Assembly (NCBI GenBank): GCA_965652295.1
Contig: CBFGTS010000020.1
Location: 1 to 64,000, forward strand
Direction of reading: 5' to 3'
Length of the DNA stretch: 64,000 nt
Origin: an uncultured Haloferula sp.
GTDB taxonomy: Bacteria > Verrucomicrobiota > Verrucomicrobiia > Verrucomicrobiales > Akkermansiaceae
The translations under genes and the position numbers were made by a program. This document shows positions 1 to 5,015 of this stretch, one piece after another. The notes beneath the pieces were generated by a model. The model had not been told where the DNA came from and did not search any database. It worked only from the letters and a program-made list of their open reading frames with translations. Every line of letters begins with the position of its first letter. Position 1 is the stretch's first letter.

Positions 1-648
1 GGCGGGAAAATGGACTGGTCCGTCGTCCGCGAGAAGATCGCCAAGCACGGCATGCGGAATTCCAACGTCCTCGCCATCGCGCCGACCGCCACCATCTCGA
101 ACATCATGGGCACCACCCCGTGCATCGAGCCGAACTACAAGAACCTCTACGTGAAGAGCAACCTGAGCGGCGATTTCATCGTCCTCAACGGCACCCTCGT
201 CAACGACCTCAAGAAGGAAGGCCTCTGGAACCAGGAGATGCTCGACCAGTTGAAGTACTTCGACGGCGAGCTCGATGCCATCGACGACATCCCCGAGGCC
301 ATCAAGACCCGCCACCGCACCGTCTTCGGTGTCGGCTTCGAATACATCGTCGATGCCGCCGCCCGCCGCCAGAAGTGGATCGACCAGAGCCAGAGCGTGA
401 ACCTCTTCCTCGCCCAGCCCGACATGAAGACCCTCAGTCACATGTACCGCCGCGCCTGGGACAAGGGCCTCAAGACCACCTACTACCTCCGCACCCTCCA
501 GGCCTCCAACATCGAGAAATCGACGATCGACGTGAAGAAAGTCACCCGCGGCATCGTCGGTGGAAACCGCGAATACACCGCCGAGGAAAAGATCGCCTGC
601 TCCATCGACGCCATGATGAACGGCGGCGAGTGCGAGGCGTGCCAGTGA
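1..648 (+). CDS. nrdA: Ribonucleoside-diphosphate reductase alpha subunit, C-terminal part (gene begins before the window)
   Basis: Motifs GMRNSNVLAIAPTATIS, IDQSQSVNL, GLKTTYYLRT (tyrosine pair) and C-terminal redox CxxC (CEACQ); stop TGA 646-648. Confidence 0.97.
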   Translation, partial: GGKMDWSVVREKIAKHGMRNSNVLAIAPTATISNIMGTTPCIEPNYKNLYVKSNLSGDFIVLNGTLVNDLKKEGLWNQEMLDQLKYFDGELDAIDDIPEAIKTRHRTVFGVGFEYIVDAAARRQKWIDQSQSVNLFLAQPDMKTLSHMYRRAWDKGLKTTYYLRTLQASNIEKSTIDVKKVTRGIVGGNREYTAEEKIACSIDAMMNGGECEACQ

Positions 649-1547
649 CGCAACTGAAGTCGAGAGACATCAACCTACCCGGCAAGGCCTTGAAAGACTT
701 CGAAAAATTTGAATCCAAGGTCTTGTCGGAGATCCTTGATTCCTTCTCTAACATAACTGAGATCGGTTGGGGGGCCCAAAAGAAGGTCTTTCGTGCGTCC
801 ACCAATGACGGAGACGCTGTCGCTCTAAAGGCCGGAAAGTATCGCTCTTCGAAGCAATTGGAGCGAGTTCAACGAGAAGTGGACTTCTTGGGTCAAGCTG
901 CCTTAACCCAATTTCCAAAGCACAAGCTATTCTCCTACGATGTCGGCACACGGGAGTTCCTGATCGTCGAGGAGTTCATCAACGGAAGAAACCTTTCCAA
1001 TTGCATTGCTTTATTCAAAACTCCCGGTTCCATTTTGCAGTTGCTGTACTCTTGCTGCCTCGCGATGTCACCTGTGTGGGAAAAACGGGTGGTTCATCGT
1101 GACCTAAAGCCGGATAATATCCTAATTCGGGAAGACAGTCATTCGCCTGTTATTATTGACTTTGGTATCGCCCGATTTCTCAACCACAGCTCCTTGACAG
1201 ACAGTCGCGCCCTCCAAGGTCCCTGCACTCCTATTTACGCGGCCCGCGAGCAACTCACGAATAGGAAAGTCGCCATCGATCACCGGACCGATTTCTTTGC
1301 ATTGGGTGTAATCGCCGCAGAACTGTTGTATGGGCGCCACCCATTTTCTCCCGAAGCTGTGCAAAGCGAGAACGACCTAATCGAAAACGTGATTGAAGGG
1401 ATTTACTTCTTGCCTGAAGTAGCTGACCCAACGAACTTGAGAATCCGCTCGCTAATTTCGCGCCTTATTGATAAGGAGCCATTTAGACGCCCTCGATCTC
1501 CCCACGCAGTGCTTGGGGAGATCGGTAGCCTCCTTGCATCGTCATGA
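645..1547 (+). CDS. Hanks-type Ser/Thr protein kinase (stand-alone kinase domain, ~300 aa)
   Basis: IGWGAQKKVF Gly-loop, VALK, HRDLKPDN, DFG, TPIYAAREQ, DFFALG. Start re-assigned to GTG 645, overlapping the nrdA stop (GTGA); the upstream part of ORF 120..1547 is a shadow of nrdA. Confidence 0.9.
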   Translation: MTQLKSRDINLPGKALKDFEKFESKVLSEILDSFSNITEIGWGAQKKVFRASTNDGDAVALKAGKYRSSKQLERVQREVDFLGQAALTQFPKHKLFSYDVGTREFLIVEEFINGRNLSNCIALFKTPGSILQLLYSCCLAMSPVWEKRVVHRDLKPDNILIREDSHSPVIIDFGIARFLNHSSLTDSRALQGPCTPIYAAREQLTNRKVAIDHRTDFFALGVIAAELLYGRHPFSPEAVQSENDLIENVIEGIYFLPEVADPTNLRIRSLISRLIDKEPFRRPRSPHAVLGEIGSLLASS

Positions 1548-2704
1548 AAATTTACCACCAGACTGGCTTCAGAACCAACTGGAACTTGGAGTCCCACATC
1601 CGTGACGGTGTCGGGAGTGGCGTCATTTGGTCGCCAGTAAATGAATCACTGAGCACCTTAAAGAAACTAAATCCCGAAGTTCGGTCACGAAGCTTCTTGG
1701 ATCCGCAGCTCTACTTGCCACATGACCAAAAAGGAAAGCTGAAAACCTATGGTTATTCACCAGAGGAAATATCCCCTCGGTGGAAAACCTCTGATTTTGA
1801 TTCCATCAAATACGAGTCTGCTGATCAATGCCTAAAGATTCAAAGATCCGCCAAATTTGCGTATGATGTGATTCCTGCTCGCTACGAGAAGGACATTATG
1901 GTAGATCACTTCGAGCGAGCTTCTGAAGATTTTGTCGCTCCCTATATCGAATTGCGAGCAGCACAGCCCATCAATCCCCCTCTCCTTCTTTCGGTAATCG
2001 CAAAAAGAATTCAAGTTGTCGATCCGCATTGCCGCAACGAGCTTTTAAATTGGATTACCAGTCACCAAGAGATTGCTGGGGTATACATAATTTTCGATTC
2101 GGAAAGTAACTCAAAGCAAATCAAGGACTCCGTATTTTTAGAGGGTGCGCTTCGGATAATTTGGGGATTAAGGCAAAACAACCTAGAGGTTCATGTGGGT
2201 TACTGTAATACGGAGGCTATTCTGTATGCCATTGCAGATCCGAACTCCGTGACTATAGGGAGCTACGAGAATCTTCGGCGGTTTTCCATCGGCCGTTTTG
2301 AGGTCAAAGAAAAAACTGGTGGGAGAAGTCCTAATCCGCGACTTTATGTTGCAGGTCTCCTTCAATGGATCGAATACGGCTATGTTGGGGCGTTGGACCG
2401 GTTAGCCCCAGAATGGAGAGCCCTGCGACACAATAATTCCTATGAACTTGAGATGTTCACTCCGAGCTTCCAGTGGCATTTCGCGAAGCCGCAGATTTAC
2501 AAGCACTACTTTACAACCATGGCTCACCAAGTGAGCATTCTTGAGGAGGATATTATAGCGAGGAGGGCTCAAGTTATTAATTGGATTGATATTGCTCTCC
2601 AGTGGTTCGATTTGATTCGAAGTAAGAACGTTCTATTGGACTCTGATAGCGATGGGTCACATTTGAGCCATTGGAGGAACGCGATATCCCTCTTTCAGCA
2701 ATGA
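1544..2704 (+). CDS. Uncharacterised 386-aa protein, possibly TIM-barrel-like (beta-protein/sce7725-like is a guess)
   Basis: Long AT-richer ORF with ATGA overlaps at both ends; motifs GVIWSP and FLDPQLY; alternating beta/alpha pattern. Family not certain. Confidence 0.8.
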   Translation: MKIYHQTGFRTNWNLESHIRDGVGSGVIWSPVNESLSTLKKLNPEVRSRSFLDPQLYLPHDQKGKLKTYGYSPEEISPRWKTSDFDSIKYESADQCLKIQRSAKFAYDVIPARYEKDIMVDHFERASEDFVAPYIELRAAQPINPPLLLSVIAKRIQVVDPHCRNELLNWITSHQEIAGVYIIFDSESNSKQIKDSVFLEGALRIIWGLRQNNLEVHVGYCNTEAILYAIADPNSVTIGSYENLRRFSIGRFEVKEKTGGRSPNPRLYVAGLLQWIEYGYVGALDRLAPEWRALRHNNSYELEMFTPSFQWHFAKPQIYKHYFTTMAHQVSILEEDIIARRAQVINWIDIALQWFDLIRSKNVLLDSDSDGSHLSHWRNAISLFQQ

Positions 2705-3240
2705 AAGGTCCACTAGCCCGGATCTGCAGCTTTGCAACAGAGTCTGAAATGGGAGAGAATTTCATTTCTGCCATTGAGCCGAGGATGCGCTTCAATCAGA
2801 TCGTGGCGAAGCGTGAGTTTAAAGCTCCGCAAGGGATTCCTGATTTCCTGTTATTTCGGCGATGTGATTCGACTCTCGTATATGTTGTCGCGCTAGAGTT
2901 GAAACTGAAAGATTGGCGAAAAGGAATTTATCAGGCATTCAAATATAGAAGCTTTTGTAACGCTGCCTACGTCATTGTAGATCGCTATTATCAGGATGAC
3001 GCCCTCGCCAATATACAGATCTTCGTTGATTCCAACATTGGATTAGCCACTTTTTCGTTAGAAGGCGAGCTAGAGGTCCTCAGCGAGCCAGTCGCGGATA
3101 TTCCTTTTTCCGCTTATTACTCATCGGTGTTGAATTCGACCTTTAAGAAAGAAGAACCCGGCCTCGAAAAATGCAGCAGATTCCACAGATCCAAAATGGG
3201 AGCCGTCTCTCTGACGAAGCTAGATCCAATGCATTGGTAA
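2701..3240 (+). CDS. PD-(D/E)xK nuclease-fold protein (179 aa)
   Basis: E...GIPDFLL...VVALELKLKDWRKGIYQAFKY matches PD...ExK plus QxxxY; ATG 2701 overlaps the upstream stop (ATGA). Confidence 0.75.
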   Translation: MKGPLARICSFATESEMGENFISAIEPRMRFNQIVAKREFKAPQGIPDFLLFRRCDSTLVYVVALELKLKDWRKGIYQAFKYRSFCNAAYVIVDRYYQDDALANIQIFVDSNIGLATFSLEGELEVLSEPVADIPFSAYYSSVLNSTFKKEEPGLEKCSRFHRSKMGAVSLTKLDPMHW

Positions 3241-3413
3241 CGTCGACATTGAATGTCCAATAAATCACGTAATCAGAAGGGGGTGCGGACCGGGAACATC
3301 GGTATTCTATACGCTCGTTGTGGGAAGTAGTTTGTTGTTGAGTCGCGCGAACTTTTGTGGTAGCCGAAGTCTCGTAAGCTTGTATCGATGTTATGCAAAA
3401 AGCCAAATTCCTA

Positions 3414-3530
3414 AAAGGGGTCGGTCCTAGAAAACAAGCATTCGAAGCTTGACGCGGCTGGCTGGATTTCCGCAGGGTCGGATGCATGGCCCGTCCAGAT
3501 ACCGGTTTTCCAGCGGGCGAAACGGGTTTA
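3414..3530 (+). repeat. Direct repeat copy 1 (~117 bp): RAYT left end and first codons plus a 34-bp extension
   Basis: AAAGGGGTCGGTCCTAGAAAAC...GCATGGCCCGTCCAGATACCGGTTTTCCAGCGGGCGAAACGGGTTTA, near-identical to 3611-3727. Confidence 0.95.
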
Positions 3531-3610
3531 AAAAAGATGCCAGGCATACAGTAGCTTGACGGCTGCTGGCTCGATGAGCTAGAACCCTCGCAATCCGATG
3601 AAAACCAGTG

Positions 3611-3727
3611 AAAGGGGTCGGTCCTAGAAAACGCGCATTCGCAGCTTGACGCGGCTGGCTGGATTTCCGCAGGGTCGGATGCATGGCCCGTCCAGATACC
3701 GGTTTTCCAGCGGGCGAAACGGGTTTA
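3611..3727 (+). repeat. Direct repeat copy 2 (~117 bp)
   Basis: Near-identical to 3414-3530; first ~82 bp also match 3893-3974. Confidence 0.95.
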
Positions 3728-3739
3728 GGATACTTACCC

Positions 3740-3892
3740 ATGAAAAAGATTCTGATGCTCTACCCGGAGTTTCCGAACACGTTTTGGAGCTTCAGGTATG
3801 CGTTGAAGTTCGTTCACAAACGGGCGGCTTTTCCGCCGTTGGGATTGTTGACGGTTGCCGCGATGCTGCCGGAGGCGTGGGAAAAGTGCGTG
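3740..3892 (+). pseudogene. 5' fragment of a B12-binding radical SAM gene, cut off at the RAYT left end
   Basis: [49 protein letters not shown] is the typical N-terminus of B12-binding radical SAM proteins; no remainder seen in the window. Confidence 0.8.
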
Positions 3893-4980
3893 AAAGGGTC
3901 GGTCCTAGAAAACACGCATTCGCAGCTTGACGCGGTTGGCTGGATTTCCGCAGGGTCCGATGCATGGCCCGTCCTCTTCGCTACGAAGCCGCTGGCGCGA
4001 TCTACCACGTGATGGCACGCGGAGACGGTGGAAAGGATGTTTTTGAATCGGACTTCGACCGCCAGGATGCGCTGAAGCGTTTGGAGGAGGTGTGCGGGAG
4101 TTTCGGTTGGCGGGTGCATGCGTGGGTGTTGATGGGCAATCATTTCCACCTGCTGCTCGAGACGCCGGAGCCGAACTTGGTGAAGGGGATGAAGTGGTTC
4201 ATGGGGGTGGTTTCCCAGGCGTGGAACCGACGGAGAAAACGGCGGGGCCATGTTTTCCAAGGGCGCTACAAGGCGGTGGTGGTGAACGGCGAGGGGAGTG
4301 GGATGTATTTCCGAATCGTGGCGGACTACATCCATCTCAATCCGGCCCGTTCGGGCTGGGTGGGAGGAACGACGGGGAAGACCTTGCGGAGCTATCGCTG
4401 GAGCAGCTTTCCGATGTATCTGGCCAAGCGGTGCCCCGACTGGATGGAGACGGGGCGGGTGTTGGGAGCGTTCGAGCTGGCGGAAGGCCGGAAGGGCGCG
4501 GAGTCGTATGGCCGGTATCTTGAGGCGCGGGCAAAGGACCGCGAGGGGGTATTGACGGATGAGGCTCTGAAGGAGTTGAGGCGGGGCTGGTATCTCGGCG
4601 ATGAGGGTTTCGGGGAGAAGCTCGCGGCGGCGATCAAGGGGCGGGTGCCAAAGCGGCGGGCCAGTGTGAGTGGTGGAGCGGTGCGCGCGCACGACGAGGC
4701 GGAGGCGACGCGATTGGTGAAGTTGCTGCTTGAGGCATTGGGTTTGCCGCAGGGTCGGGTGGCGCTGGCTGGTCGGGCGAAATGGCAACGGGAGAAGGCG
4801 CTGGTTTGTGCAACGGTGCGGAAGTGGACAGGCGTGAGCAACGGATGGCTGGCCGATCGGCTGTCGATGGGCCACGTCAGCAGCGTGACCCGGAGTCTGC
4901 GGCGGGTAAGGGAGGAGAGGGACTTGAAAAGGGAGTTGGAGAGGCTGGAGGAACTGCTCGAAATCTAGGACTGACCCCTA
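3893..4980 (+). mobile_element. RAYT/Y1-transposase element bounded by inverted ends
   Basis: Left end GGGTCGGTCCTAGA (3896-3909); right end TCTAGGACTGACCCC (4964-4978) is its reverse complement with 1 mismatch; encloses the transposase. Confidence 0.8.
3964..4968 (+). CDS. REP-associated tyrosine transposase (RAYT, HUH/Y1 family) with C-terminal helical/HTH extension
   Basis: [29 protein letters not shown] (HUH), [14 protein letters not shown] (catalytic Tyr), YRWSS. Confidence 0.93.
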
Positions 4981-5015
4981 GCGCTCCCAGCGCTCCCAGC
5001 GCTCCCAGCGCTCCC
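4980..5015 (+). repeat. 9-bp tandem repeat (AGCGCTCCC)x4 abutting the RAYT right end
   Basis: Directly visible. Confidence 0.97.

Follow-up and report, generated by a model that had tools for sequence, protein, structure and literature searches.

A TIRtron preceded by copies of its own left end: probable duplication and deletion scars in an accessory island

Introduction

How does a transposase gene come to lie behind a small array of its own left end? In a 64,000-nt stretch of DNA from an uncultured Haloferula sp. (hereafter, the window), the gene for an HUH/Y1 transposase follows extra copies of its opening sequence, set apart by short pieces of other DNA. IS91/ISCR elements with their one-ended rolling-circle capture, IS200/IS605 elements, integrons and CRISPR arrays all offer points of likeness to such a locus, be it in HUH chemistry, in the capture of neighbouring DNA or in the alternation of repeats and spacers. 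A preliminary description proposed that repeated end-capture or abortive transposition had built an array which records foreign DNA next to a defence-like island. Here we trace the origin of the individual pieces, compare their joints with those found at related elements and weigh the alternative explanations. The elements most relevant to this comparison are the TIRtrons, whose transposase, TIRYT, was described by Di Nocera et al. 2013 (PMC3733652) and equated with TnpA-Y1 subclass 2.1 by Quentin et al. 2018 (PMC6006769); this subclass is the second largest TnpA-Y1 group, and the TIRYT family is found in about 15% of the species sampled in the latter study.

Results

Organization of the locus

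The left end of the TIRtron occurs three times in direct orientation, at 3414, 3611 and 3892 in a repeat search of the window, so that the three ends of about 82 bp reported in the preliminary description (3414, 3611 and 3893) are real, the third being displaced by a single base. Copies 1 and 2 share 97% identity over 117 nt, and copy 3 matches at 94% over 82 nt before continuing as the transposase gene. When the copies were compared by BLAST with the 4.37 Mb genome, E values of 1e-51 and 6e-30 were obtained, and the repeats are therefore not due to chance. Under the rule derived below from relatives, according to which each unit begins with a five-base foot placed outside the repeat core, the units start at 3412, 3609 and 3891.

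Read along the forward strand, copy 1 (3412-3496) consists of a foot (3412-3416), a core from 3417, a promoter-like region and, at its 3' end, the first 11 nt of the transposase gene. It is followed by 34 nt (3497-3530, forward strand) that were also noted at the outset as common to copies 1 and 2; they are identical in BLAST to 3694-3727, and correspond to the beginning of the region upstream of a radical-SAM gene, truncated here by the end of a second element. The first spacer (3530-3607, forward strand) carries this left end of a second Y1-transposase family, with a promoter-like region and three codons (ATG at 3598). Copy 2 (3609-3693, forward strand; foot 3609-3613) again stops 11 nt into the gene and runs into the radical-SAM upstream region (3694-3739, forward strand), which is probably a promoter. 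The second spacer (3740-3890, forward strand) contains the first 49 codons, to 3886, of a gene for a 494-aa B12-binding/radical-SAM/DUF4070 protein, and the four bases at 3887-3890, where this fragment meets the left edge of the element, are of uncertain assignment. Copy 3 (3891-3963, forward strand; foot 3891-3895) is the element's own left end, and the TIRYT gene itself, coding for 334 aa, occupies 3964-4968 of the same strand. As previously remarked, the gene ends in the inverted sequence: the core of the right terminal inverted repeat lies at 4965-4978 on the reverse strand and includes the stop codon (4966-4968). Beyond it, the right foot (4979-4983) and a 9-bp tandem run (repeat family D3) extend over 4979-5012 of the reverse strand and vary between strains; the tandem run would seem, from its sequence, to resemble degenerate foot-plus-core copies.

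Of the 119 positions compared between copies 1 and 2, 4 differ, and because all four fall within the first 34 nt, copy 1, instead of being a simple duplicate, may be a mosaic that includes another element. The core of copy 3, at 3896, reads GGG instead of GGGG, and no difference at this place is listed for two metagenomic runs discussed below (X3 and X6), for which reason the three-G core may be an old change; it could also affect activity. A scan of 3240-4000 for the sigma-70 consensus returned no promoter, and the term promoter-like accordingly refers to a TTGAC motif that occupies the same place in relatives. All seven pieces of the array folded no better than their shuffled counterparts (z from -0.93 to 0.97), and the array had no match in Rfam. 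The runs listed as sharing sampled words with the locus included no RNA run, which speaks neither for nor against an RNA role.

The transposase belongs to a described class

The 334-aa protein has a Y1_Tnp core (Pfam PF01797, E 7e-10), in which the motifs N59-H60-F-H62 (NHFH) and Y122-IHLNP are kept across 50 homologues. The best fold match of its predicted structure is E. coli TnpA-REP (PDB 4ER8, Z 16.3), and residues 246-334 of the model superimpose on domain IV of DnaA with Z scores of 11.0 and 10.9 (rmsd 2.2-2.4 over 86-87 aligned residues), a match which, the domain being helical, lends moderate support to a predicted C-terminal helix-turn-helix (HTH); Pfam alone returned no HTH match in the protein. 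Marks of a canonical RAYT were lacking, as GTAG-tagged hairpins were not found and the score against the RAYT equivalog NF047646 (56.7 bits in NCBIfam) stayed below the cut-off of 80. The right end of the element fits the GGGGWSAS consensus exactly, and the left copies have a G in place of A, a variant present at 37% of 169 sites in relatives. Repeats are present at both ends in 25 intact relatives, and homologues of the transposase were found in 76 of the 201 genomes of the host's bacterial family, the Akkermansiaceae to judge by the names of its best protein matches, this genome counted (a scan of a genome collection with a single protein query gave only 3 loci). Judged by these traits, the 334-aa gene is a TIRYT (TnpA-Y1 subclass 2.1) within a TIRtron. 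Terminal inverted repeats had been regarded as unusual for HUH/Y1 transposases, yet TIRtrons with such ends have been described (PMC3733652, PMC6006769), and the marks observed here (Y1 core, motifs, HTH and unfolded ends) lead one to expect them. Direct target duplications of the 5 bases outside each repeat were seen neither in the 25 intact relatives nor in the window.

Both spacers are cellular DNA of this lineage

The segments between the repeats are not unrelated, contrary to the preliminary description, and derive from the end of a second Y1 element and the start of a radical-SAM gene. The first 30-35 nt of 3530-3607 match sites in six genomes of the genus, where downstream of the motif come a TTGAC box and, about 65 nt further, a start codon. 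The genes opened there code for 377-393 aa where intact, display a YIDLNP motif and matched Y1_Tnp in both cases tested, which identifies the first spacer as the left end of a second transposase family with three codons kept. This family of about 377 aa is probably subclass 2.3-like, a placement by motif and length. Its motif is also found on contig C7 of this genome.

The frame from 3740 matches, at 63-88% identity, the start of 494-aa B12-binding/radical-SAM/DUF4070 proteins present in 4 of 200 other genomes of the family, and a search of this genome, which is 98% complete, did not turn up the remainder of the gene. Run X3, a soil metagenome from another study, contains a 1333-nt contig that differs at a single position over 3707-3886 and continues in frame into the intact gene; a contig from run X6, of a third study, matches from 3691, and its first 42 letters do not. 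Together, these two contigs indicate that a single native stretch comprises the 34 bp, the 12 bp after it and the 49 codons. Three bases (3691-3693) at the joint between copy 2 and the radical-SAM region constitute a microhomology.

The same runs contain the transposase. In X3 it shows 7 differences over 3889-4920, on a contig separate from that of the intact radical-SAM gene, and X6 contains a near-identical element (3 differences over 4656-4978); the contigs are separate pieces of metagenomes and may come from different cells. In both runs the left flank differs from that of the window and ends in a short extra copy of the end; the right neighbour is the same as the window's in X3, and the element in X6 has a different right foot with short end copies. 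No near-identical copy, whether of the array or of the radical-SAM upstream region, was found in the 35 genomes of the genus and 301 of the order that were searched, and the right-hand neighbours were not found in 34 genomes of the genus at an E value of 1e-20. A second, truncated radical-SAM start of about 40 codons is present in one relative that also possesses the full gene (locus L059, G186:C19). Searching metagenomes with 21 bases taken from the shared 34 bp gave one match, in an unrelated operon and otherwise dissimilar, which was taken as chance.

A fixed and a free breakpoint at related ends

Loci fetched from relatives were pooled after exclusion of those from this genome, of a chance locus (L088) and of sites with too little flank. 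The resulting 169 element-like ends all come from one bacterial family, were chosen for holding the gene or the motif and are not independent of one another. A direct copy spanning the outer edge was present within 200 nt at 77 of them; the frequencies were 4-29 of 159-168 when the position was shifted and 19 of 600 when other G runs were taken. At thinned sites selected only on a nearby GGGGTC, the bases outside this motif are identical between local copies in 52-56 of 59-60 cases at positions -1 to -5 and in 20 of 47 at -6 (Fisher P 7e-7 for the drop after -5), the corresponding identities for random pairs being 0.33-0.45 and 0.28. The five-base foot itself takes 37 forms among 60 sites. By contrast with this shared outer edge, the inner length of partial copies is anything between 4 and 120 nt, and 45 of 105 stop right after GGGGTC. 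Truncated copies, counted in 140 cases, lay outside the end in 42 and inside it in 3. Rearrangements at these ends have one breakpoint fixed 5 bases outside GGGGTC and the other variable. The feet are the same at both ends of the element in 4 of 25 cases. For the second family the step is weaker, with identity in 8-12 of 14-15 at -1 to -6 and in 4 of 12 at -7 (15 sites). At most 10 kb separates 16 of the 17 ends of a single-contig genome from one of its three closest TIRYT genes.

In the window, the -5 edge is the exact start of copies 1 (3412) and 2 (3609), the latter preceded by one unassigned base, and the start of copy 3 (3891) lies within four bases of that edge; the joint of the second family (3528-3530) fits this family's own, less sharp edge. 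Three of the four junction types of the window are located at the -5 edge or within 4 bases of it, and the sole type found away from an end is that of the left end into the radical-SAM region. Long left-end arrays are no feature of the family: an extra 45-nt left-end copy within 1.4 kb upstream was seen in none of 26 intact relatives, and an extra right end downstream in two of them.

At six contig ends of this genome (C11, C16, C25, C27, C30 and C31), further ends of the same family are accompanied by short stutter copies, and in three of these (C11, C16 and C30) a GAATGGCGC-type motif, which is also present in relatives (L007, L009, L018 and L029), is fused to the core. A further group with short stutter copies (C7:177000-179230) includes a duplicated stretch ending in right ends beside an end of the second family. 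Among relatives, locus L039 (G103:C28:5000-24999) contains three TIRYT genes and five fossil left ends spaced about 3-5 kb apart. Most of these fossil ends are followed by long ORFs that may be Rhs-like, and by small ORFs as well; the locus is possibly an end-punctuated polymorphic gene array. Downstream of the gene at L044 (G004:C1:1384000-1402000), at 1.1, 2.6 and 4.3 kb, stand copies of the right end, each flanked by accessory genes, and this locus mirrors the window's array at gene scale. Y1_Tnp matches were also observed inside open frames of 917-1514 aa in this genome (C3:252502, C17:82645 and C17:91668).

The neighbouring kinase module

Upstream of the array, a low-GC module (645-3240, forward strand) codes for a Ser/Thr kinase and for proteins of 386 and 179 aa. 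It abuts a ribonucleotide reductase gene at the stop codon, which the probable start codon of the kinase overlaps, and its three genes have 44-52% GC as against about 63% for the genome. The 386-aa and 179-aa proteins had no family match in Pfam, NCBIfam or PADLOC, the former falling in unnamed Atlas clusters (score 0.97), and the kinase gave kinase-domain matches only, far below NCBIfam cut-offs. This kinase-domain match is the one trait behind the earlier term defence-like island, and a defence role of these neighbours is putative. In G103 (L229), the only other genome of the family found to have them, the kinase and 386-aa genes are some 330 nt away from a duplicated end.

Discussion

Probable duplication and deletion scars at a TIRtron end

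We favour, with a probability of about 0.6, the reading that what lies here is a TIRtron within an accessory island, its array consisting of duplication and deletion scars produced by a nick at -5 followed by rejoining. It is the variation between strains, together with the cellular nature of the pieces, that points to a stack of such scars; the -5 edge in relatives and its recurrence at the junctions of the window suggest that the DNA is nicked 5 bases outside the repeat and the resulting end joined to 3' ends in the vicinity. In this respect the preliminary description was partly correct, as repeated abortive end events are the likely builder of the array, given that most junctions match the breakpoints of end rearrangements in relatives; the record of foreign DNA is not supported, since both spacers trace to the cellular DNA of this lineage and a search with them for a foreign origin matched no phage or plasmid.

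Cleavage by E. coli TnpA-REP leaves a 5'-phosphotyrosine and a free 3'-OH, and the model proposed for this enzyme, in which nick-primed extension, a second cut and rejoining yield added tandem units or excised circles, also covers the capture of flanking gene fragments (PMC3333891). By analogy, the C-terminal HTH of the TIRYT would bind the repeat, and the HUH/Y1 domain would nick one strand 5 bases outside the core and stay joined to the 5' end, which would then be rejoined to another 3'-OH nearby. If this 3'-OH were on nick-primed new DNA, a partial copy would be left outside the end, a stutter of the kind represented by copies 1 and 2; if it lay farther upstream, the intervening DNA would be deleted, and the radical-SAM gene could have been cut at codon 49 and the second element at codon 4 in this manner. 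The joint of the left end with the radical-SAM region, with its 3-base microhomology, is perhaps an ordinary deletion or a secondary cut. The probable order of events would begin with a deletion that brought an earlier element up against the radical-SAM upstream region; the unit would then have been duplicated with the end of the second element caught in between, and the radical-SAM gene finally deleted up to the present element. The -5 cut alone does not explain the different right foot of X6 or the microhomology joint, and the 45 of 105 partial copies that end after GGGGTC call for a second cut or for recombination in the core.

Alternative explanations

Considerably less probable, albeit the best placed of the alternatives, is an insertion hot spot in which whole TIRtrons of several families accumulated and were then eroded by slippage, microhomology-mediated deletion and homologous recombination, the five-base foot being the true tip of the element or a preferred target. 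Microhomologies (3 bases at one joint, 1-2 at others), the clustering of full and broken elements in three relatives (G047, G085 and G103) and the same left foot shared by near-identical copies in G103 are all in keeping with such a history. Slippage, however, gives no cause for the pairing of a fixed with a free breakpoint or for the polarity of 42 to 3, and insertion of whole elements sits poorly with feet that agree at both ends in 4 of 25 elements only and with direct target duplications in none of 25.

A more general proposition, which we regard as doubtful, is that TIRYTs are HTH-guided HUH nickases that cut, independently of sequence, 5 bases outside the repeat, join that end to other 3' ends and, acting mostly in cis, build and reshuffle accessory islands. 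If true, stutter, adjacent deletion and the capture of whole modules, such as the kinase module behind an end, would give the TIRYT family an integron-like role. An integron-like capture platform in which the ends serve as recombination sites, the TIRYT adds or reshuffles whole modules, often placed behind the promoter of an end, and the present array is a decayed case, appears unlikely. In G103, G004 and G047, ends of the same orientation do recur every 1-3 kb with accessory genes in between, and the kinase module adjoins a duplicated end in the sole other family genome that has it (1/200); but both captured pieces of the window are truncated, one of them being merely the end of another element, extra ends are rare beside intact relatives (left 0/26 for 45 nt within 1.4 kb upstream, right 2/26), and neither a pair of empty and filled sites nor a circle was seen. 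Comparison of strains revealed flanks that differ at the ends, with truncations as the only outcome observed.

It is highly improbable that the locus is a CRISPR-like array recording invaders and giving guide or antisense RNAs, despite its repeat-spacer look, a promoter-like region in each repeat and the adjacent kinase module. The spacers are cellular, neither the 50,697 phage records nor the 72,556 plasmid records searched gave a match to them, viral contigs yielded no instance of the end motif, no fold exceeded shuffles in any of the seven pieces and Rfam gave no match; furthermore, the units measure 84-119 nt, the only cas1 found is on another contig (C8), the second spacer is in sense orientation and the array is not conserved. 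Finally, an assembly artefact can practically be dismissed even though six further sites with such ends fall no more than 150 nt from a contig end in this genome, a sign that TIRtrons trouble assemblers, and none of the contigs listed spans the whole array, because the copies differ at diagnostic bases (4 positions) and contigs from a second sample of the possible source study match 3088-3636 and 3723-4855 without difference (3637-3722 falling between the listed pieces) and bridge the joints at 3412, 3497, 3530 and 3890, two samples, the first of which may be the source, containing 0.98 and 0.88 of 198 sampled words.

Comparison with known systems

In IS91/ISCR and IS200/IS605 elements, integrons and CRISPR arrays, points of likeness end where a Y2 transposase, a subterminal hairpin, an integrase or an adjacent cas gene would be expected, none of which is shown here, and the pieces of the window are truncated and irregular; the two transposon groups are also treated in PMC3333891. 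Closer in fold, and in the model of nick-primed extension and rejoining, is the REPtron of E. coli, composed of TnpA-REP with REP/BIME sequences (PMC3333891, PMC8266576). REPs form hairpins that bear a GTAG tag, and their cleavage takes place at C|T in single-stranded DNA (Ton-Hoang et al. 2012, PMC3333891; Corneloup et al. 2021, PMC8266576), whereas the present element has no hairpin, has its edge set by distance rather than sequence (37 feet), and carries an additional HTH domain. The second family resembles TnpA-Y1 subclass 2.3 in its length of about 377 aa, the YIDLNP motif and long core insertions; PMC6006769 reports no REP-like structure for that subclass, as opposed to the conserved left-end motif seen here. 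Bertels et al. 2017 (10.1101/119735) contributed nothing on these ends, and no substrate, cut site or breakpoint rule for subclass 2.1 was encountered in the literature searched, which comprised few subscription journals and was taken without the supplements of PMC3733652 and PMC6006769.

With the TIRtrons of those two papers, the present element shares a Y1/HUH gene between terminal inverted repeats of the GGGGWSAS type, the NHFH and YIHLNP motifs, which fit the class patterns NH[YF]H and Y[IV]HLNP, a repeat overlapping the 3' end of the gene, an HTH of the DnaA domain IV/HTH_23/HTH_28 kind at the C-terminus, the absence of REP hairpins and the occurrence of repeats also alone and in groups. 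The portions of the papers at hand give no cleavage site, fixed five-base foot, one-sided stutter, adjacent deletions or activity assay. The element belongs to a described kind, what appears to be new being the five-base edge shared by copies of variable inner length. The array itself is debris, and its value is that of a footprint of transposase action, the joints probably marking where the enzyme cuts; the five-base edge, the one-sided stutter and a pair of strains with the neighbouring gene intact or cut allow a precise oligonucleotide assay to be designed.
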